Of a stretch of DNA of 15,838 bases, positions 1,651 through 12,309 are shown in pieces; position 1 is the stretch's first letter, and each line of letters opens with the position of its first letter. Source of the stretch: a virus (taxonomy: Duplodnaviria; Heunggongvirae; Uroviricota; Caudoviricetes); IMG/VR virus record IMGVR_UViG_2724679293_000012. One strand, 5' to 3'. The position numbers and the translations under genes are program-made. Below the pieces are notes generated by a model that was not told the origin of the DNA, ran no database searches, and was given only the letters and a program-made list of their open reading frames with translations.

Positions 1651-2646
1651 GTGACCGTGAGAGCACTACTGACCCCTGAAATTGCCCCGCGTATGGGGAT
1701 CGTATTGTTCAGGCCAGGTTCAGAGCTGATGCCCTTGTTTATGCAGGGGCGTGTCCTGCTGGAGCCTGAGCCGGAACGTTATTCATCTTTCGCCAGTGGT
1801 GCCGTTCCGGCGGCATCACAACCGCTGGCGGATGATCCTGTCGTTCGGGCCGTGTTCCGCAATGAGGCAGTGATCCGTCGTGCTGGTGGCGTGGAATGCC
1901 TTGAAAGCTGGTTACTTCGTGAAAAGGGCTGTCAGTGGCCTCATTCCGACTGGCACAGCGAGAACATGACCACAATGCGACACGCGCCGGGCGCAATCCG
2001 TCTGTGCTGGCACTGCGATAACCAGCTGCGTGATCAGTTCACGGAACGGCTGGAGTCAATGGCAACGGATAACTGTGCCCGCTGGGTGTTGTCTGTCGTG
2101 CGTCGGGATCTCGGTTTTGATGACAGTCACGTTGTGACAATGCCGGAACTGTGCTGGTGGCTGATTCGTAATGATCTGGCGGATGCCTTACCGGAAAGTG
2201 CAGCCCGTAAGGCACTGAGATTACCGAAGCCTGTTGTGCCGTCTGTCACCCGGGAAAGTGACCTTGTGCCTTCGGTTCCTGCCACCAGCATCATCCAGGA
2301 TAAGGCAAAAAAGGTGCTGGCGCTGAAAGTGGATCCGGAGTCGCCGGAGTCTTTTATGTTACGCCCAAAACGTCGCCGCTGGGTTAATGAAAAGTACACG
2401 CGATGGGTTAAGACGCAGCCGTGCGCATGTTGTGGAAAACCTGCTGATGATCCCCACCACCTGATAGGTCACGGTCAGGGTGGAATGGCTACAAAAGCGC
2501 ATGACCTCTTTGTGTTGCCTTTGTGCAGAAAGCATCACGACGAGCTGCATGCGGATACCGTGGCATTTGAAGAGAAGTATGGCTCCCAGCTGGAGCTGAT
2601 ATTTCGTTTTATCGATCGTGCACTGGCAATTGGCGTGCTGGCCTGA
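1651..2646 (+). CDS. DUF968-family protein (YdfU-like), Cys/His-rich C-terminus
   Basis: 331 aa ORF immediately upstream of Q, as ydfU lies next to the Q homolog in the E. coli Qin prophage. C-terminal motif CACCGKPADDPHHLIGHGQGG...LCRKHHDELH. Track start is GTG at 1651; the real start may be an internal ATG (1693 or 1729). Confidence 0.65.
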   Translation: MTVRALLTPEIAPRMGIVLFRPGSELMPLFMQGRVLLEPEPERYSSFASGAVPAASQPLADDPVVRAVFRNEAVIRRAGGVECLESWLLREKGCQWPHSDWHSENMTTMRHAPGAIRLCWHCDNQLRDQFTERLESMATDNCARWVLSVVRRDLGFDDSHVVTMPELCWWLIRNDLADALPESAARKALRLPKPVVPSVTRESDLVPSVPATSIIQDKAKKVLALKVDPESPESFMLRPKRRRWVNEKYTRWVKTQPCACCGKPADDPHHLIGHGQGGMATKAHDLFVLPLCRKHHDELHADTVAFEEKYGSQLELIFRFIDRALAIGVLA

Positions 2647-2663
2647 TTTTGTGGAGAAAGTTG

Positions 2664-3005
2664 ATGCGTGATATGTATGAAGTATTGGACCGCTGGGGTG
2701 CATGGGCTGCAGCAGATAACAGTGGTGTGGACTGGCAGCCTGTTGCTGCAGGGTTTAAAGGTTTACTACCTCATGGAAAGAAAACACGCCAACAATGCGA
2801 TGATGATGAAGGAATCATGATTGACAGCTGTGTTGCGCGATTGCGGAAATATAAGCCCGAAGAGTATGAGTTGGTTATTGCTCATTTTGTTATCGGCATC
2901 TCACTAAGAACTATTGCAAAGAAGCAGAAGTGTTCTGATGGGACAATAAGAAAAGAGTTGCAAACAGCTCTTGGTTTTCTGGATGGTGTGCTTTCAATGT
3001 TGTAA
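2664..3005 (+). CDS. Late-gene antitermination protein Q (phage 82/21-type Q family)
   Basis: Conserved N-terminal motif MRDMYEVLDRWGAWAA and overall resemblance to QuuD-type Q proteins of E. coli prophages. ATG at 2664 has a GGAG SD 8 nt upstream; the track ORF begins at an upstream TTG (2649). Confidence 0.85.
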   Translation: MRDMYEVLDRWGAWAAADNSGVDWQPVAAGFKGLLPHGKKTRQQCDDDEGIMIDSCVARLRKYKPEEYELVIAHFVIGISLRTIAKKQKCSDGTIRKELQTALGFLDGVLSML

Positions 3006-3010
3006 TATTA

Positions 3011-3037
3011 GGGGGAATTACCCCCCTTTTTTTCTCT
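3011..3037 (+). terminator. Rho-independent terminator just after Q (hairpin GGGGGAATTACCCCCC plus T-run)
   Basis: Near-perfect GC hairpin followed by TTTTTTT on the + strand, 6 nt after the Q stop. The hairpin also contains the stop codon of the convergent minus-strand gene 3018..3566. Confidence 0.6.
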
Positions 3038-3566
3038 GTTGCTTTAATAAAATTTTAATATTTTGTCTGATTATGATGAGGCAATGTAATAAAAGAAATA
3101 CCGTTAGTATTGCAAGCCATACGCAAAATAAGCATGCATATAAATTAGTTGAAAGTCCAATAGTGAATTGTGCAATTGCTGTTGTGATAGAACATAATAT
3201 TGATGTATTAATAAATGAGGATAAATTGTCTAAAGGTTTATAAAGTACACTATCATTGATTTTGTCAATAGGTATACCAGTGGCAATGCTATAAATTTCC
3301 TTATATTCCTGAGTTGCAAAAACCTTATCGCGTAAATTTATTATGACAAAGGTATGCAGGCTCAATAAAAATGAGCCCACGGAAATAAAACCGGAGAAGA
3401 GATAGCCTCGTAAGTTTTTATGATAAAACTCAAAAAAGTTAACACTTACTTTAGGTGTGTTTCTGTACAATAGGTAAAGTGCAAGCAATGCCAGGATCGA
3501 GAATGCAAGCAGTGTAAGGTACTGATACCTCAATCTTTTATTTATTAGCCATTCATATAAAGGCAT
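3018..3566 (-). CDS. Small four-helix membrane protein of unknown function (candidate membrane effector of a two-gene cassette)
   Basis: 182 aa; four hydrophobic helices (about residues 15-34, 53-76, 116-140, 141-165) and a basic tail RQNIKILLKQQRKKGG. Strongly AT-rich, Asn/Ile/Lys/Leu-rich composition unlike the flanking phage genes. Second gene of a minus-strand pair. Confidence 0.6.
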   Translation of the reverse strand: MPLYEWLINKRLRYQYLTLLAFSILALLALYLLYRNTPKVSVNFFEFYHKNLRGYLFSGFISVGSFLLSLHTFVIINLRDKVFATQEYKEIYSIATGIPIDKINDSVLYKPLDNLSSFINTSILCSITTAIAQFTIGLSTNLYACLFCVWLAILTVFLLLHCLIIIRQNIKILLKQQRKKGG

Positions 3567-3662
3567 TTTTATTCGTCCCGTTCAGCATTTCTTCTTTTAT
3601 CATATCAAAAACAGGGTTTGTTGTATAATTATCGTTTGTCAATCCATTGACTTTATCGGCAA

Positions 3663-4478
3663 TTATATCGAAATCGTATGTTTCAAAAAAACAGGGCAGT
3701 TCATAAAATCAATGGTTTTTTCTATTCCTGCATGGTTTACTGCAATAACCTGTGCTTTAGCAACTCCACTCATAGAATTATAAATATTTGAAAGATTCTG
3801 AGATAGTTGTTGCACTTTTGTTCTGTCGCTAGAATTAAAATTCATATCTATTGTGGTGGTGTTAACAAATTGTTCAAGCGCAGTCATTGGTCCACCTTTA
3901 AAATCTATATAATTAAATTTAAAGCTTGTGCTTTTAATCTCTTTGAATTGACATAAAACACTCTGAATGTTGTTTTTATTTGTCATAAGGCTGAAAGTCA
4001 GTCTTTCTTTGTATTTTTTATTTATTGCAGTTACTTCTTTTTGTTTTGGTTTATCACCAAGTTTTTTTATTTCTTCTTTATTTTGATTTCTGATAAATTC
4101 ATTACTTATTGTTTCTAAATGAGAAAAGAGAGTGTTCAGACTGCATGAACCGTGGTGATACATATAGAGACCAGAAAGATTAGATTTTTTAATTAAGAAA
4201 AAGTTGAAATTAGCAAGTTTGTCACTTCCTTGAAGATCTTCAATTTTAAGCTGGAATTTACCATCAACAAATTGCGACTTACAGTTCTTTTTTTGGTTTC
4301 TGAATGTGACAACTAATCCATAATAGAAATCATTCACATCCGAAATGAGAATTTTACGAGTATAGTCTGTGCGACTGTGTTCTCTGTTTGATGCGTTGAT
4401 AAAAGCATTCATTACGTCAACGGTATTAATATTTTTGTTATTGTTATTTATTGTAAATCCTATGCTTCTAACTTTCAT
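3663..4478 (-). CDS. Hypothetical soluble protein, AT-rich foreign gene (first gene of a two-gene cassette)
   Basis: 271 aa ORF, Asn/Lys/Ile-rich, no transmembrane segments and no motif I recognise (no clear Walker, nucleotidyltransferase GS..DxD or HEPN Rx4-6H). Same strand as the membrane gene with a 96 bp gap. Confidence 0.6.
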   Translation of the reverse strand: MKVRSIGFTINNNNKNINTVDVMNAFINASNREHSRTDYTRKILISDVNDFYYGLVVTFRNQKKNCKSQFVDGKFQLKIEDLQGSDKLANFNFFLIKKSNLSGLYMYHHGSCSLNTLFSHLETISNEFIRNQNKEEIKKLGDKPKQKEVTAINKKYKERLTFSLMTNKNNIQSVLCQFKEIKSTSFKFNYIDFKGGPMTALEQFVNTTTIDMNFNSSDRTKVQQLSQNLSNIYNSMSGVAKAQVIAVNHAGIEKTIDFMNCPVFLKHTISI

Positions 4479-4744
4479 GTGTATTCCAGGACCGACTAAA
4501 GATAGCGAGAATGGGGACGCATAGTTTATAAAAATCCTAACGCGTACGCAAAAAGTATTATATCGTGTTAAGAGTGGTTACTTCGCCACACAACTTAAAC
4601 CCGCCGCTGAGCGGTTTTTTGTACCTGTAAACCTTGTGCAGTACAGTAAACACGCTGGTGGTCGTGAATACTGGCTTTTTATCTTGCTGGCTTTTTAGAC
4701 AAGAGTTATTGGTATGTCACGTTAACCGGAAAGGGTAAAAAGAC

Positions 4745-4942
4745 ATGCTGAAACAGCAGGATATGACAGAAACCGCCAGAGTTGTGTTTGATGAATTAAG
4801 CGTTACCGAACCGGCGACAGTCGGGGAGATTGCGCAGAATACTTACCTTTCACGCGAACGCTGCCAGTTAATACTGACCCAGCTTGTTATGGCGGGTCTG
4901 GCAGACTATCAGTGCGGTTGTTACAGACGCCTTCAGTCCTGA
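4745..4942 (+). CDS. Small winged-helix regulator, FaeA/PapI-like
   Basis: 65 aa; pattern TVGEIAQNTYLSRERCQLILTQLVMAGL resembles the PapI/FaeA wHTH core. ATG at 4745 with a purine-rich SD. Divergent from the minus-strand cassette across a ~265 bp intergenic region. Confidence 0.5.
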   Translation: MLKQQDMTETARVVFDELSVTEPATVGEIAQNTYLSRERCQLILTQLVMAGLADYQCGCYRRLQS

Positions 4943-5075
4943 AGGCTTTTTATTTGTGGTGAATGGGCGGCTGGTGGGGGGCGACACCTGTCAGTCCTTT
5001 GCTTATGTGTTGATGATAATTTACCTTTTGGGGCTATAATTGAGCTAACCAATTGCTAATGAAAGTAAAATTATA

Positions 5076-5647
5076 ATGGCTGTTGTCTGTTCAGTTATCA
5101 TGGTTTGCTCCCCAATTAATATTTTTCTTGAAAAGGATACGTTGTCACTTAAGCCAGGCTCAGTTGTTCTGGCCACCAAATGCATCAGGGAGCTTTTCCT
5201 TATGCATTATGGCAAAGTTAAAATTGTNNNNNNNNNGAGGCCACGGATATGTTTCTTATGATGGCCTGCCTGTCTCTGTTTGAAACAGATGAACGGATGT
5301 CATTGTTTTTAAGTGGATGTTTATCCAGCATAAGTGTCAAAGTCAGGGCGATAATTCAGACAGATATATCAGCAAGCTGGACGCTTGGTGCGATTGCTCT
5401 ACAGTTGCATATGAGTGAGAGTTTGTTAAAGACAAAACTGAAAAATGAAGGGGGCATGTTCAGTCGCTTGTTGCTGGAAGAGCGGATGCGTGTTGCTGTA
5501 AATATGTTATGTTCCCGGTATGGATATGGACAGGCTGTAGCAGAAAAATGCGGTTATTCAAGCAGGTCCTACTTTATTTCTGTATTTCACCGCTATTATG
5601 GCTTCCCGCCAGACAGATATGTATCCAGGCAAGGGCTTGATTATTGA
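5076..5647 (+). CDS. AraC-family transcriptional regulator (Rns/CfaD/PerA-like), interrupted by an assembly gap
   Basis: C-terminal part (frame of 5249..5647) has a classic AraC HTH: SWTLGAIALQLHMSESLLKTKLKNEGGMFSRLLLEERMRVAVNMLCSRYGYGQAVAEKCGYSSRSYFISVFHRYYGFPP. N-terminal part (5076..5227, other frame) has ELFLMHYGKVKI, alignable with the Rns N-domain. The halves are separated by NNNNNNNNN, so length and frame across the gap are unknown. TATAAT at 5035-5040 upstream. Confidence 0.7.
5228..5236. other. Run of 9 N (assembly gap of unknown true length) inside the AraC-like gene
   Basis: Literal n characters in the sequence; reading frame differs on the two sides. Confidence 0.95.
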
Positions 5648-5675
5648 TTTTCATCTGATTATTATTTTTTGGCTC

Positions 5676-5751
5676 GGCCCTTTAGCTCAGTGGTGAGAGC
5701 GAGCGACTCATAATCGCCAGGTCGCTGGTTCAAATCCAGCAAGGGCCACCA
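5676..5751 (+). tRNA. ileZ: tRNA with CAU anticodon, tRNA-Ile2 (lysidine) type
   Basis: Cloverleaf folded by hand: acceptor GGCCCTT/AAGGGCC, D-arm GCTC..GAGC, anticodon loop CTCATAA, T-loop TTCAAAT, terminal CCA. Closely resembles E. coli ileX from memory. Confidence 0.85.
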
Positions 5752-5760
5752 TATCAGATA

Positions 5761-5837
5761 CCGCCATTAGCTCATCGGGACAGAGCGCCAGCCTTCGAAG
5801 CTGGCTGCGCGGGGTTCGGGTCCCCGATGGCGGTCCA
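5761..5837 (+). tRNA. argN: tRNA-Arg, anticodon read as UCG
   Basis: Cloverleaf: acceptor CCGCCAT/ATGGCGG, anticodon stem CCAGC/GCTGG with loop CTTCGAA, T-loop TTCGGGT, terminal CCA. Second member of the tRNA triplet. Confidence 0.8.
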
Positions 5838-5850
5838 TTATTGGTATTCA

Positions 5851-5927
5851 GCGTTGTTAGCTCAGCCGGACAGAGCAATTGCCTTCTAAGCAATCGGTCA
5901 CTGGTCCGAATCCAGTACAACGCGCCA
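5851..5927 (+). tRNA. argO: tRNA-Arg, anticodon UCU (reads rare AGA)
   Basis: Cloverleaf: acceptor GCGTTGT/ACAACGC, anticodon stem ATTGC/GCAAT with loop CTTCTAA (as in E. coli argU), T-arm ACTGG/CCAGT, terminal CCA. Confidence 0.85.
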
Positions 5928-6213
5928 CACCACACTTATCTGCCCTGACTCTCTTTTTCGGGCTTTTTATTACAGGAAAGACACCGGGCAGTGAAATGTT
6001 AAATGCCTCACAATTCAGGCAGTTGACTGTTGCCTGACATGCTGAGCGTTTGTTAAAAAAATCCTGCATGATGAATCCCCCTGGGCGGCGGGGCATAATG
6101 ACAGATGTTTGGTTGCGTATTGTATAGGCAAGTTGCGGATTCTGTCTGGTCATTGCAGAATTCACCGGGAGGCACCCGGCATCATGCTGTATACAGAGAT
6201 TAGGCATATATCC

Positions 6214-6240
6214 AGGCTCCTCATCGCAGGAGCCTTTTTA
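6214..6240 (+). terminator. Rho-independent terminator downstream of the tRNA cluster
   Basis: 8 bp stem AGGCTCCT/AGGAGCCT, loop CATCGC, followed by TTTTTA. Confidence 0.55.
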
Positions 6241-6245
6241 CATGC

Positions 6246-6270
6246 AAAAAAAGCCCGAGTAGGTTCGGGC
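6246..6270 (-). terminator. Minus-strand rho-independent terminator (convergent with the previous one)
   Basis: Hairpin GCCCGA-GTAGGT-TCGGGC preceded on the + strand by AAAAAAA, i.e. hairpin plus U7 on the minus strand. Confidence 0.5.
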
Positions 6271-6330
6271 AACAGCATGAGATACTTGCATTGTCATTTT
6301 TATCGTGTGGATTTTAACCAGGGTTTATAA

Positions 6331-6357
6331 GGCTGCGCAACTGCGCGGCCTTTTTCG
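6331..6357 (+). terminator. Rho-independent terminator upstream of the esterase gene
   Basis: GC-rich hairpin GGCTGCGC-AACT-GCGCGGCC followed by TTTTTCG. Confidence 0.55.
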
Positions 6358-6457
6358 TATTGCGGGCTGTAGTCTTCCTTCTGTCATTGTCCTGTAACTT
6401 CCGGACTTCAGCCCGCCCCTTATCTGACTCACAACATTATCCCGGCCGGGAGGATTC

Positions 6458-7453
6458 ATGGCATTTAAACACTATGACGTGGTCAGGGCGGCGTCGCCGT
6501 CAGACCTTGCTGAACGACTGACACAAAAACTGAAGGAGGGGTGGCAGCCATTTGGCAGCCCGGTGGCCATCACGCCTTATACTCTGATGCAGGCCATTGC
6601 GGCGGAAGGTGATGTCACCACACCTGTGTTGGTGAAGCCGTCGGATGGAGAAGGCACAGTAATCAGCGCCACCAGAGACCCGGAGTATTACTTTGTTGTG
6701 GTTCTGGCGGGGCAGTCAAACAGCATGGCATATGGTGAAGGCCTTCCGCTGCCGGAGACATATGACCGTCCGGACCCGCGCATTAAGCAGCTGGCGCGTC
6801 GCAGTACGGTGACACCGGGCGGTGTCGCCTGTAAATATAACGACATCATTCCGGCGGACCATTGTCTGCATGATGTGCAGGACATGAGCCGCCTTAACCA
6901 TCCGAAAGCGGACCTGTCAAAGGGGCAGTACGGAACCGTGGGGCAGGGGCTGCATATCGCCAAAAAACTGCTGCCGTTTATACCGGCGAATGCGGGCATT
7001 CTGCTGGTTCCGTGCTGTCGTGGTGGTTCAGCGTTCACCACCGGAGCTGATGGCACATACAGTGACGCGAGTGGTGCTTCGGAGAATTCAACCCGCTGGG
7101 GTGTGGACAAGCCGCTGTATAAGGACCTTATCGGTCGAACAAAAGCAGCACTGAAGAAGAACCCGAAAAATGTGCTGCTTGCCGTGGTGTGGATGCAGGG
7201 GGAATTTGATTTTGGCGGTACGCCTGTAAATCACGCAGCACAGTTTGGTGCGCTGGTTGATAAATTCCGTGCAGACCTGGCGGATATGGCAGGTCAGTGC
7301 GTCGGTGGCTCTGCTGGCGGTGTTCCCTGGATATGTGGAGATACGACGTATTTCTGGAAGCAGAAGAACGAATCCACGTACCAGACGGTGTACGGCAGCT
7401 ATAAAAACAAAACGGAAAAGAATATCCATTTCGTACCGTTCATGACNCAGTAA
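6458..7453 (+). CDS. nanS: NanS-p-like prophage sialate O-acetylesterase, N-terminal part (frame broken by the tandem duplication)
   Basis: Strong SD GGGAGG before the ATG; SGNH/SASA-type motif VVLAGQSNSMAYGEGLP; position (after tRNAs, before lysis genes) matches nanS-p of Stx phages. The ORF stops at 7453 only because the 791 bp duplication (791 mod 3 = 2) shifts the frame. Confidence 0.7.
   Translation: MAFKHYDVVRAASPSDLAERLTQKLKEGWQPFGSPVAITPYTLMQAIAAEGDVTTPVLVKPSDGEGTVISATRDPEYYFVVVLAGQSNSMAYGEGLPLPETYDRPDPRIKQLARRSTVTPGGVACKYNDIIPADHCLHDVQDMSRLNHPKADLSKGQYGTVGQGLHIAKKLLPFIPANAGILLVPCCRGGSAFTTGADGTYSDASGASENSTRWGVDKPLYKDLIGRTKAALKKNPKNVLLAVVWMQGEFDFGGTPVNHAAQFGALVDKFRADLADMAGQCVGGSAGGVPWICGDTTYFWKQKNESTYQTVYGSYKNKTEKNIHFVPFMXQ
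6657..7447. repeat. Copy 1 of an exact ~791 bp direct tandem duplication inside the esterase gene
   Basis: Identical to 7448..8238 over the full length; antisense ORFs 6688..7110 and 7479..7901 in the track are identical at offset 791. Boundaries approximate within 2-3 nt. Confidence 0.9.
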
Positions 7454-8238
7454 TCAGCGCCACCAGAGACCCGGAGTATTACTTTGTTGTGGTTCTGGCG
7501 GGGCAGTCAAACAGCATGGCATATGGTGAAGGCCTTCCGCTGCCGGAGACATATGACCGTCCGGACCCGCGCATTAAGCAGCTGGCGCGTCGCAGTACGG
7601 TGACACCGGGCGGTGTCGCCTGTAAATATAACGACATCATTCCGGCGGACCATTGTCTGCATGATGTGCAGGACATGAGCCGCCTTAACCATCCGAAAGC
7701 GGACCTGTCAAAGGGGCAGTACGGAACCGTGGGGCAGGGGCTGCATATCGCCAAAAAACTGCTGCCGTTTATACCGGCGAATGCGGGCATTCTGCTGGTT
7801 CCGTGCTGTCGTGGTGGTTCAGCGTTCACCACCGGAGCTGATGGCACATACAGTGACGCGAGTGGTGCTTCGGAGAATTCAACCCGCTGGGGTGTGGACA
7901 AGCCGCTGTATAAGGACCTTATCGGTCGAACAAAAGCAGCACTGAAGAAGAACCCGAAAAATGTGCTGCTTGCCGTGGTGTGGATGCAGGGGGAATTTGA
8001 TTTTGGCGGTACGCCTGTAAATCACGCAGCACAGTTTGGTGCGCTGGTTGATAAATTCCGTGCAGACCTGGCGGATATGGCAGGTCAGTGCGTCGGTGGC
8101 TCTGCTGGCGGTGTTCCCTGGATATGTGGAGATACGACGTATTTCTGGAAGCAGAAGAACGAATCCACGTACCAGACGGTGTACGGCAGCTATAAAAACA
8201 AAACGGAAAAGAATATCCATTTCGTACCGTTCATGACC
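7448..8238. repeat. Copy 2 of the ~791 bp tandem duplication; junction base 7447 is N
   Basis: Same as above; the single ambiguous base sits exactly at the copy junction. Confidence 0.9.
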
Positions 8239-9186
8239 GATGAGAACGGGGTGAATGTGCCGACGAACAAACCGGAAGAAGACCCGGACATTCCGGGTAT
8301 CGGATATTACGGTTCGAAATGGCGTGACAGCTCAGCCACCTGGACGTCACAGGACAGGGCGAGCCATTTCAGCGCCTGGGCACGCCGTGGGATTATTTCC
8401 GACCGTCTGGCAACGGCGATTTTGCGCCATGCGGGAAGAGTGGCGCTAAACGCGGGGGCATCATCGACAGTATCAGAGGTGCGCCCGTCATCGCCTTCCG
8501 GTGCAGAAGCCACAGGCGTCACAACACTGCTCTCTTACCTTGCCAGCGAGTCAGAGGGAAGCCTGAAAGTACAGGGATGGTCAGCCAGTGGCGGCAGGGC
8601 AGAAGTGGTCAGCGATGCGGAGGGAACCGGAGGTAAGGCAGTGAAGCTGACCAAGGAAGCCGGTAAAAGCAGCTGGGTGCTGGAGTACGCCGCGGGCAAC
8701 GGTGCGGCTCTGTTACAGAAAGGGGGGCAGATTCGCTGCCGCTTTAAGGTTTCGGGAGCGCTGGCTGCGAACCAGTATGTTATGGCGTTTTACTGGCCGG
8801 TATCTTCACTGCCACAGGGCGTTGCCCTGACCGGAGACGGGGGGAATAACCTGCTGGCAGCGTTCTACATCCAGACAGATGCAAAAGACCTGAATGTGAT
8901 GTACCACAATGCGAAAGTGGCGACAAACAACCTGAAACTGGGAACCTTTGGCGCATTTGATAACGAATGGCATACGCTGGCTTTCCGCTTTGCCGGGAAT
9001 AACAGCCTTCAGGTGACGCCGGTTATTGATGGTCAGGATGGCACACCGTTCACGCTGACGCAGTCACCGGTCAGTGCATTTGCGGCGGATAAACTGCATG
9101 TGACAGACATTACCAGAGGTGCGACTTACCCGGTGCTGATTGACAGCATTGCGGTGGAAGTGAACAGCACAGACACTGCGGCATGA
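7489..9186 (+). CDS. nanS: NanS-p-like esterase, esterase core plus C-terminal carbohydrate-binding-like domain (frame is open back to about 7448)
   Basis: 565 aa ORF whose first ~250 aa repeat the end of the previous ORF. Collapsing the duplication gives one continuous in-frame ORF 6458..9186 of about 645 codons. Confidence 0.75.
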   Translation: MVLAGQSNSMAYGEGLPLPETYDRPDPRIKQLARRSTVTPGGVACKYNDIIPADHCLHDVQDMSRLNHPKADLSKGQYGTVGQGLHIAKKLLPFIPANAGILLVPCCRGGSAFTTGADGTYSDASGASENSTRWGVDKPLYKDLIGRTKAALKKNPKNVLLAVVWMQGEFDFGGTPVNHAAQFGALVDKFRADLADMAGQCVGGSAGGVPWICGDTTYFWKQKNESTYQTVYGSYKNKTEKNIHFVPFMTDENGVNVPTNKPEEDPDIPGIGYYGSKWRDSSATWTSQDRASHFSAWARRGIISDRLATAILRHAGRVALNAGASSTVSEVRPSSPSGAEATGVTTLLSYLASESEGSLKVQGWSASGGRAEVVSDAEGTGGKAVKLTKEAGKSSWVLEYAAGNGAALLQKGGQIRCRFKVSGALAANQYVMAFYWPVSSLPQGVALTGDGGNNLLAAFYIQTDAKDLNVMYHNAKVATNNLKLGTFGAFDNEWHTLAFRFAGNNSLQVTPVIDGQDGTPFTLTQSPVSAFAADKLHVTDITRGATYPVLIDSIAVEVNSTDTAA

Positions 9187-9890: not shown

Positions 9891-10106
9891 ATGAACCAGA
9901 TGGAAAAAATCACAACAGGTGTGTCATACACCACGTCAGCGGTGGGAACGGGCTACTGGTTCCTGCAGTTGCTGGACAGGGTTTCCCCGTCTCAGTGGGC
10001 GGCAATAGGCGTGCTGGGGAGTCTGCTGTTTGGTCTGCTGACGTACCTGACGAACCTGTATTTCAAAATCAGAGAGGACAGGCGTAAGGCGGCACGGGGA
10101 GAGTAA
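9891..10106 (+). CDS. S: Class II holin / pinholin, phage 21 S21 type, with dual-start motif
   Basis: 71 aa; [63 protein letters not shown] is near-identical in pattern to S21. Met1 and Met4 (MNQM) give the antiholin/holin dual start. Immediately precedes the endolysin. Confidence 0.88.
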
Positions 10107-10110
10107 GCTG

Positions 10111-10644
10111 ATGAGCAGGAAACTCCGCTATGGTTTATCGGCTGCCGTTCTGGCGCTGATTGCCGCAGGTGCTTCTGCGCCTGAAATCCTCGACCAGTTT
10201 CTGGATGAAAAGGAAGGCAACCACACCACGGCATACCGTGATGGTGCGGGTATCTGGACCATCTGCCGTGGAGCCACCCGGGTGGATGGTAAGCCTGTTA
10301 TTCCTGGCATGAAGCTGTCGAAGGGGAAATGCGACCAGGTTAACGCCATTGAGCGTGATAAGGCGCTGGCATGGGTGGAGAAAAACATCAAAGTGCCACT
10401 GACTGAACCCCAGAAAGCGGGTATTGCGTCATTCTGTCCTTACAACATTGGCCCAGGTAAGTGTTTCCCGTCGACGTTTTATAAACGAATTAATGCAGGA
10501 GATCGAAAAGGTGCCTGCGAAGCGATTCGCTGGTGGATTAAGGACGGTGGCAGAGACTGCCGTATTCGCTCAAATAACTGTTATGGTCAGGTATCCCGTC
10601 GTGACCAGGAGAGCGCGCTGGCGTGCTGGGGAATCGACAGATAA
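10111..10644 (+). CDS. R: SAR endolysin (lysozyme with N-terminal signal-anchor-release domain, R21-like)
   Basis: 177 aa; hydrophobic N-terminus LSAAVLALIAAGASA then lysozyme core (EGNHTTAYRDGAGIWTICRGAT). Start is 4 nt after the holin stop. Confidence 0.9.
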   Translation: MSRKLRYGLSAAVLALIAAGASAPEILDQFLDEKEGNHTTAYRDGAGIWTICRGATRVDGKPVIPGMKLSKGKCDQVNAIERDKALAWVEKNIKVPLTEPQKAGIASFCPYNIGPGKCFPSTFYKRINAGDRKGACEAIRWWIKDGGRDCRIRSNNCYGQVSRRDQESALACWGIDR

Positions 10645-10917: not shown

Positions 10918-11613
10918 ATGAAAGAGATGATTTCTGTCGATCATGAAATATCCATGAGTAGTCTGGATTTTCTGAATAACATTATTAATCCAGCCCGGGC
11001 AGAAGCCGGAGAAGTCCCTCATGAACCGCGTAAGTTTCTTGCAAAAATTGAGGATGAGCTAGAGCTTGATGGAACCGGAAAAAAATTCCGGTTAAACAAT
11101 AACCAGACAAGAACGGCATACTATGATCTGGATTTTGACCAGATGATGCTCGTTGGCATGAGGGAGTCAAAGGCCGTTCGTCGTTCTGTGCTGGCAAGAC
11201 TCAAAGCGATGCATGGTATTCAGATCCCCCGGACTTTACCTGAGGCGTTGCGATTTGCGGCAAAACTGGCTGAACAGAAAGCAGTGCTGGAAAATCAACT
11301 GGCAATAGCAGCGCCGAAGGCTGAATTTGTTGATAACTATGTTGAAGCATCTGGTCTGATGGGATTCCGGGAAGTTGCTAAGTTACTCGGTATCAAAGAA
11401 ACCGATTTCCGGCTGTTTTTGTTGGAGAACGGAATAATGTATCGCCTCGCTGGAAAAATGACGCCTTACTCGCATCACCTGGATGCGGGGCGGTTTAGCG
11501 TGAAAACGGGCGAGGCGGGCAATGGTCATGCTTTTACGCAGGTTAAATTCACCCCAAAAGGTGTTCAGTGGATTGCTGGTCTGCTTGCTGCATGGAGAGC
11601 TACCGCAGCATGA
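10918..11613 (+). CDS. Phage antirepressor-like protein with C-terminal KilAC (ANT) domain
   Basis: 231 aa; C-terminal region (APKAEFVDNYVEASGLMGFREVAKLLGIKETDFRLFLLENGIMYRL...TPYSHHLDAGRF) matches the KilAC/ANT pattern; SD AAAGGA before the ATG; lies between R and Rz as in Stx-phage lysis regions. Confidence 0.7.
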   Translation: MKEMISVDHEISMSSLDFLNNIINPARAEAGEVPHEPRKFLAKIEDELELDGTGKKFRLNNNQTRTAYYDLDFDQMMLVGMRESKAVRRSVLARLKAMHGIQIPRTLPEALRFAAKLAEQKAVLENQLAIAAPKAEFVDNYVEASGLMGFREVAKLLGIKETDFRLFLLENGIMYRLAGKMTPYSHHLDAGRFSVKTGEAGNGHAFTQVKFTPKGVQWIAGLLAAWRATAA

Positions 11614-11850: not shown

Positions 11851-12309
11851 ATGCTTTCCGCGTTTACCGTTATTCTGCTGGTGGTCTGTAGTGCGCTGTG
11901 GCTGGCAACAGACCATTACCGTGATAACGCCATCACCGACAAAGCGCAGCGCGATAAAAAAGCCAGAGAGCTGGAGCTGGCAAACGCAACCATTACTGAC
12001 ATGCAGCAGCGCCAGCGTGATGTTGCTGCGCTTGATGCCAGATACTCAAGGGAATTAGCCGATGCGAGAGCTGAAAATGAAACTCTGCGTGCTGATGTTG
12101 CCGCTGGTCGTAAGCGCCTGCGGATCAACGCCACCTGCTCCGGTACCGTGCGTGAAGCCACCGGCACCTCCGGAATGGATAATGCAACCGGCCCCCGACT
12201 GGCAGACACCGCTGAACGGGATTATTTCACCCTCAGAGAGCGGTTGATGACAATGCAGAAGCAACTGGAAGGGGCGCAGGAATATATCCGCACTCAGTGC
12301 CTGAATTAA
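11851..12309 (+). CDS. Rz: Rz i-spanin (inner-membrane spanin subunit)
   Basis: Aligns along its length with lambda Rz (HYRDNAIT.KAQRDK.AREL.LANA.ITDMQ.RQRDVAALDA...RLADTAERDYFTLRERL.TMQKQLEG). Start taken at ATG 11851; an in-frame GTG at 11836 is an alternative. The track ORF starts upstream at 11743. Confidence 0.85.
   Translation: MLSAFTVILLVVCSALWLATDHYRDNAITDKAQRDKKARELELANATITDMQQRQRDVAALDARYSRELADARAENETLRADVAAGRKRLRINATCSGTVREATGTSGMDNATGPRLADTAERDYFTLRERLMTMQKQLEGAQEYIRTQCLN
12062..12247 (+). CDS. Rz1: Rz1 o-spanin lipoprotein, embedded in the +1 frame of Rz
   Basis: MRELKMKLCVLMLPLVVSACGS has the lipobox LVVSAC; proline-rich mature part matches lambda Rz1 (CVKPP.PP.WIMQP.PDWQTPLNGIISPSE). 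Fully nested within Rz. Confidence 0.8.
   Translation: MRELKMKLCVLMLPLVVSACGSTPPAPVPCVKPPAPPEWIMQPAPDWQTPLNGIISPSESG

Follow-up and report, generated by a model that had tools for sequence, protein, structure and literature searches.

The tRNA-to-nanS-p region in related prophages

In the Stx2a prophage Sp5 of E. coli O157:H7 Sakai (933W type), the late region runs from the antiterminator gene Q through the tRNA triplet ileZ-argN-argO, the toxin genes stx2AB, and EcOnc27/AsxR to ECs_1207 (nanS-p) and the lysis genes S, R, and Rz. AsxR (= EcOnc02), which is found with EcOnc27, lies 282 bp 3' of stx2AB in Sp5 (PMC4104026), and the same layout was reported for the Sakai prophages Sp3, Sp4, Sp9, Sp10, Sp11, Sp15, and Sp17 (Tree et al. 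2014, PMC4104026). The anti-sRNAs at these sites are 51-60 nt long and combine a conserved 3' region with a variable 5' region (Tree et al. 2014, PMC4104026); in AgvB, a CACAACA motif in the 5' variable region makes the RNA a mimic of GcvB (PMC4104026). An STnc100 prediction partly overlaps the Hfq-binding EcOnc27 (sRNA103), 3' of stx2B (PMC12711010), and STnc100 has been placed 75 nt downstream of stx2 (PMC12370729). An arrangement of pasD/STnc100, a sialic acid esterase gene, pasA/pasC, and genes for holin and lysozyme has been described more recently (Zhu, Shabalina, Storz 2026, bioRxiv 10.64898/2026.05.13.724894). Toxin-free kin of these phages are phage vB_EcoP_phi296 (Traversvirus), the PPwrbA records, and the Sakai prophages Sp3, Sp4, Sp9, Sp10, Sp11, and Sp17.

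We analyzed a 15,838-nt stretch of viral DNA (IMG/VR record IMGVR_UViG_2724679293_000012), referred to here in its entirety as the window. The window is the late-gene module of a toxin-free relative of the Shiga toxin (Stx) phages of E. coli. We hold with high confidence that its interval between the tRNA genes and nanS-p is the standard cargo (moron) module of the late region of a lambdoid, Stx-phage-like prophage in its unoccupied state, with a pair of small RNA (sRNA) genes and terminators as described below. The identity, order, and strand of all elements of this interval and its breakpoints relative to Stx1 and Stx2 phages are established here; the layout as such is already known from Tree et al. 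2014, and the locus holds nothing conceptually new beyond that study and later work.

The order and orientation of the tRNA triplet, STnc100/EcOnc27, the anti-sRNA, a third terminator, nanS-p, holin, and endolysin in the window (Table 1) are those of Sp5. The window differs from Sp5 in three respects: 39 bp replace the 1341 bp that carry stx2AB, the anti-sRNA has a different 5' variable region, and Q is a different, shorter allele that is separated from the tRNAs by four genes (two on the minus strand, a small open reading frame (ORF), and an AraC-family regulator). As in the arrangement of Zhu et al. 2026, an STnc100-family sRNA gene is found directly upstream of the esterase gene, followed by those for holin and lysozyme.

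Table 1. Features of the window from Q to Rz, with positions numbered from the first nucleotide of the window
Feature	Position	Strand	Basis
Antiterminator Q, 113 aa	2664..3005	+	Pfam PF06530 Phage_antitermQ, E = 2.1e-45; RefSeq annotation of the identical DEC9B gene
Two overlapping genes, no assigned function	3018-3566 and 3553-4478	-	RefSeq CDS in DEC9B
Hairpin plus T-run element	4560..4625	+	81-82% identity to Sp5 and Sp15 just 3' of Q
Small 65-aa ORF, phrog_331, no assigned function	4745..4942	+	ORF list, RefSeq, PHROGs
AraC-family regulator, 237 aa when intact, broken by N run 5228-5236	5076..5647	+	Pfam HTH_AraC and HTH_18
tRNA, anticodon CAU, ileZ type, tRNA-Ile2	5676..5751	+	ARAGORN; Rfam tRNA, 72.5 bits
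tRNA-Arg (UCG), argN type	5761..5837	+	ARAGORN; Rfam tRNA, 53.1 bits
tRNA-Arg (UCU), argO type	5851..5927	+	ARAGORN; Rfam tRNA, 65.8 bits
Weak hairpin plus T5 after argO	5942..5968	+	Fold -6 kcal/mol, z = -1.8
Vacant cargo (moron) junction	5969..6007	.	stx2AB here in Sp5; stx1AB of Stx1a phages nearly here
STnc100/EcOnc27-family sRNA gene	6037..6245	+	Rfam RF02076, 175.6 bits (gathering 47), full length 1-206
Terminator 1	6214-6235 plus T-run	+	Consensus scan
AgvB/AsxR-family anti-sRNA gene, 60 nt	6305..6246	-	Rfam AgvB RF02702, 56.2 bits (gathering 56)
Terminator 2	6270-6253 plus T-run	-	Consensus scan
Third intrinsic terminator	6329..6362 (hairpin 6329-6352 plus T-run)	+	10-bp stem, -18.8 kcal/mol
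nanS-p-type sialate O-acetylesterase gene, split in the window	6458..9186	+	Pfam DUF1737 + SASA + DUF6645 on the intact 645-aa DEC9B protein
Class II holin (S)	9891..10106	+	Pfam PF04971
Endolysin (R), lysozyme	10111..10644	+	Pfam PF00959
Antirepressor gene	10918-11613		Annotation
Rz spanin	11851..12309	+	Pfam PF03245

Relatives and gene order of the window

Four complete E. coli genomes (DEC9B, F2_407_2_2, 7_33_46A, and JB2) contain a prophage to which the entire window is 100% identical, apart from two differences that both look like assembly artefacts. At the first, nine Ns at 5228-5236 replace 151 bp (approximately residues 52-101) of the AraC-family gene, with DEC9B as the reference. At the second, position 7447 is a lone N, after which 790 bp are repeated exactly (6657-7446 = 7448-8237), so that nanS-p is split into 6458-7453 and 7489-9186; this repeat is probably a scaffolding artefact, because the four otherwise identical genomes lack the duplication. 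The matching DEC9B prophage is ~53 kb long (chromosome 752265-805298), is inserted in and splits fimD, the gene for the type 1 fimbrial usher, and has tccP2, an effector gene, at the far end.

An early reading of the backbone as a late region of Stx-phage type agrees with these alignments. The tRNA block is 91% identical to that of Sp5, and sequences downstream of it are 85-98% identical (85% for 6008-7446); the window flanks are 97-99.5% identical to the Stx1a prophage of the O103 strain RM8385. As in Sp5/933W-type late regions, Q is found upstream and the genes for NanS-p, holin, endolysin, and Rz downstream, though Q lies 2.7 kb upstream. All of the genes predicted in the order nanS-p, S, R, and Rz were found by their Pfam domains, but R and Rz are not adjacent, as an antirepressor gene separates them.

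ARAGORN predicts exactly three tRNA genes in the window, and the Rfam tRNA model agrees, so the three tRNAs with CAU, UCG, and UCU anticodons that had been read from the sequence stand as a triplet of the Sp5/933W type. The first is called tRNA-Met by ARAGORN from its CAT anticodon; the identical gene is tRNA-Ile in RefSeq, and its homolog in Sakai Sp5 is ileZ2.

The first-pass annotation had Q directly preceding the tRNAs, but the two are separated by 2.7 kb that contain other genes. Two minus-strand genes, of 182 and 308 aa, separate Q from a hairpin element that is the counterpart of the sequence 9-75 nt past the Q stop codon in Sp5 and Sp15; this element also contains a terminator-like site at 4603-4615. 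Neither gene has a match in Pfam, NCBIfam, or PADLOC, and PHROGs gives only phrog_2802, to which no function is assigned; they could be an uncharacterized accessory or defense cassette. The remaining content of this region is the 65-aa ORF and the AraC-family regulator, for which the nearest NCBIfam models are YdeO and GadX, with scores far under their cut-offs. The regulator gene is directly 5' of the tRNAs, and several viral contigs (L034, L036, L058, and L111) also have it beside their tRNAs.

A search of the window by homology for the late promoter (PR') and for tR' (StxS) placed neither, and the sole piece shared with the reference prophages was the hairpin element 3' of the two minus-strand genes. 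The position of PR' in Sp15 was worked out from the coordinates in PMC7547250. PR' is unplaced in the window because this shared piece maps upstream of PR' in Sp15, and the element was dropped as a candidate for tR'/StxS for the same reason.

A convergent sRNA pair and three terminators upstream of nanS-p

The ~530 bp between argO and nanS-p had been described as an empty slot, but it holds a convergent pair of sRNA genes, which are the two matches above the Rfam gathering score inside the interval. One belongs to the STnc100/EcOnc27 family over its full length. The other is a 60-nt gene of the anti-sRNA family, with a 3' region and terminator nearly identical to the consensus; it reaches the AgvB model only at threshold (56.2 versus 56 bits) and scores 44 bits with the AsxR model (RF02703), below the gathering score of 63. 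The two genes abut at 6245/6246, terminator 1 being the 3' end of STnc100 and terminator 2 the 3' end of the anti-sRNA. RefSeq annotates the tRNAs here and neither sRNA.

The absence of an ORF of toxin size from this interval was confirmed, as the largest in 5928-6457 encode 116 aa (minus strand) and 73 aa (plus strand, TTG start). The 116-aa ORF (5857-6207) was rejected as a gene: it overlaps both argO and STnc100, is unannotated in RefSeq, and lies in a region with many indels between relatives.

Like the moron-site pairs of Tree et al. 2014 (PMC4104026), the window pair consists of a 60-nt anti-sRNA with a conserved 3' region, antisense to the late operon, that is convergent with a longer sRNA, and the pair follows the cargo position and precedes the conserved esterase gene. 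Unlike AgvB and AsxR of that study, the window anti-sRNA has a 5' variable region, CGAUAAAAAUGACAAUGCA, that matches neither type. This region does not contain CACAACA, the GcvB R1 motif, and the RNA is therefore not AgvB in the strict sense of a GcvB sponge; by its score with the AsxR model, it is not AsxR in the strict sense of an FnrS sponge either. The anti-sRNAs of the loci examined (L004, L030, L058, L098, and L120) have at least four different kinds of 5' variable region. The type present in the window (6285-6305, minus strand) is also found 3' of stx1B in the Stx1a prophage of O103 RM8385. The anti-sRNA may be a functionally distinct member of its family that sponges a core-genome sRNA different from both GcvB and FnrS, with an effect common to toxin-free and Stx1a prophages, a proposal that we advance tentatively and with somewhat less than even confidence. 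If it is true, toxin-free and Stx1a prophages exert a common, uncharacterized regulatory effect on the host.

All three of the stacked and convergent terminators noted earlier were recovered in place by a consensus scan, and each is predicted from its sequence to be an intrinsic terminator with a G+C-rich hairpin followed by a T-run. The fold energies of terminators 1-3 are -13.6, -13.9 (for the entire anti-sRNA), and -18.8 kcal/mol, with z-scores of -4.3, -2.4, and -2.6, respectively. Terminator-like sites are enriched in the surrounding sequence, with 10 found in 4500-7000 compared with 2.8 ± 1.8 in shuffled sequences. The third terminator has no gene of its own and lies ~95 bp upstream of nanS-p; its core is invariant across four aligned loci, Stx1a and Stx2a phages included.

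A promoter-like pair of hexamers can be read on the minus strand, TTGCGC (6340-6335) and TAAAAT (6316-6311) with an 18-nt spacer. Since this pair is at a suitable distance from the 5' end of the anti-sRNA, the hairpin of the third terminator appears to overlap the -35 element of the probable anti-sRNA promoter.

The occurrence of three terminators in a stretch of 150 bp that precedes nanS-p and the lysis genes, and the fact that the third is not assigned to a gene would also be expected if the 530 bp were a noncoding spacer with stacked terminators that serves for insulation alone and has no RNA genes. We regard that explanation as extremely improbable: STnc100 is matched over its full length and exceeds the gathering score by 128 bits, the anti-sRNA family has a match of 60 nt, and experiments in Sakai and EDL933 have detected the homologous RNAs as transcripts bound by Hfq (PMC4104026, PMC12711010). 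The preferred reading remains a cargo module that contains an sRNA pair. Its order is the ileZ-argN-argO tRNAs, a 39-bp vacant junction, convergent Hfq-type sRNAs (STnc100/EcOnc27 on the plus strand and the anti-sRNA on the minus strand, each with its own terminator), the third terminator, nanS-p, and the lysis genes, with the junction as the site that is occupied by stxAB in Stx phages and by other small cargo genes in other relatives.

The literature on Sp5 and lambdoid phages suggests how such a module would work. In a lysogen, the tRNAs and both sRNAs would be made from their own promoters, and the terminators would keep transcription of the tRNAs and sRNAs, and from any cargo promoter, from running on into nanS-p and the lysis genes. 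Once the prophage is induced, RNA polymerase modified by Q would be expected to read through all of the terminators. The proposed role of the anti-sRNA is that of a sponge for an sRNA of the core genome. By analogy with these systems, we infer promoter activity, Hfq binding, and read-through in the window prophage, and we assign a putative role to the third terminator on the same footing.

Arrays that differ from the single STnc100 gene of the window were seen in some viral contigs, in which three to five STnc100-family genes are arranged in tandem with a period of ~254 bp (L016 2265-3380; L022 342-1038; L066 4349-5513). An isrI-family match lies inside the array of L066.

The stx position and its occupancy among relatives

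The site at which toxin is present or absent was located by alignment with Stx phages. Window 5672-5968, containing the tRNA triplet plus 35 bp, corresponds to 2262-2552 of the Sp5 locus (L008), and the sequence that forms a weak hairpin after argO is the final part that Stx2 phages have in common with the window ahead of stx2, since homology to both Sp5 and the Stx2a phage Stx2_EH0505 stops at 5968. Homology resumes at 6008, where window 6008-7446 corresponds to 3894-5323 of the Sp5 locus, starting 46 bp past the stx2B stop codon. Sp5 thus has 1341 bp, including stx2A (2608-3567) and stx2B (3579-3848), at the position of the 39 bp at 5969-6007 of the window. The breakpoints relative to Stx2_EH0505 are identical to those relative to Sp5, and for the Stx1a prophages (O103 RM8385 and Sakai Sp15) the match starts again at window 5994, 40 bp past the stx1B stop codon. 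The site of toxin presence or absence is 5969-6007 and not the whole 530-bp interval of the first-pass annotation.

A four-way alignment shows that the stxB-to-nanS-p stretch of the Stx1a phage, like that of the Stx2a phage, contains STnc100, the anti-sRNA, and the third terminator. Because the 6008-6457 block is also found 3' of stxB in Stx1 and Stx2 phages, these alignments identify it as the normal stxB-to-nanS-p spacer and not as a marker of a missing toxin. In lambdoid prophages of pathogenic E. coli, what separates the tRNAs from nanS-p is an sRNA locus that was already known rather than the scar of a lost toxin, and the sRNA genes can be added to annotations of this locus, from which they are lacking in RefSeq.

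No stxA and stxB lie between the tRNA block (or Q) and nanS-p in the window. When Stx1A/B and Stx2A/B were used as tblastn queries (E up to 10), no match fell below E = 0.04 and none lay inside the interval, and a blastn search (word size 7) with the Sp5 stx2 cassette found no stx remnant. The 39-bp filler of the junction is found in toxin-free phi296 and several viral contigs (96-98% identity) and is absent from Stx loci; when the filler and its surroundings were searched in Stx loci with up to five mismatches, for a case of stx as a clean insertion, only phi296 matched. Phage phi296 is contiguous with window 5672-7446 at 83-90% identity. It shares with the window and other toxin-free kin the tRNA triplet, the vacant junction with the same filler, the sRNA, and nanS-p, and has no recognizable copy of the anti-sRNA variant of the window.

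The first-pass annotation had left two possibilities, a toxin-free relative or a phage that had lost stx. The comparisons support the former, and nothing in them points to toxin loss. A recent derivation from an Stx phage, with stxAB either precisely deleted or lost as the phage recombined with a toxin-free prophage that shared its cell, would fit the 97-99.5% identity of the flanks to an Stx1a prophage and the 96-98% identity of the tRNA block to that of some Stx2 viral contigs, and partners for such recombination exist, as host genomes have several lambdoid prophages bearing the module (median 2, up to 15 places per genome). We nevertheless consider this derivation unlikely. No stx remnant is found at either the protein or the DNA level, and the junction sequence, with the filler that is missing from Stx loci, is widespread in toxin-free prophages. 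Relative to the closest Stx1a prophage, the entire Q-to-stx1 module has been exchanged, with a Q of another family and no tRNAs in the relative, which is not the outcome of a deletion. The flanks are just 85-91% identical to those of Stx2 phages, and no record of the phage collection matches the query in one contiguous stretch, the best-ranked Stx-phage matches being 84.5% identical. An older recombinational loss of stx is conceivable, but nothing indicates it. In a third relative, strain 6883, the same Q is present, but genes for a methyltransferase and iraM replace the AraC gene, the tRNAs, and the sRNAs. Judged from these alignments, the relatives differ in the mosaic fashion that is usual for lambdoid phages. 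The supported reading is thus a toxin-free relative, and toxin-free, Stx-like prophages should not, per se, be taken to show that stx was lost.

Vacancy of the junction is common: argO and STnc100 are contiguous across it in 455 of 5426 complete E. coli genomes. We also fetched 120 IMG/VR loci with a common 20-nt STnc100 core, 43 of which have both argO and the core; the counts that follow are those of this sample. In the loci with a vacant junction, argO and the STnc100 core are 186-256 bp apart, a distance that is 235 bp in the window. Among the matches listed, the junction is vacant in 22 of 43, contains other cargo of 0.6-0.75 kb in 17, and contains stx2 in four. Most relatives have no cargo at the toxin position, a narrow junction whose commonest state is vacancy, and the census describes one polymorphic cargo site.

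Other cargo at the argO-STnc100 junction includes, for example, a 143-aa ORF or a 108-aa ORF (L011 6288-7096; L071 4459-5413, and similar loci). From its sequence, the 143-aa ORF may be the TerB-domain protein named in the Storz-lab preprint.
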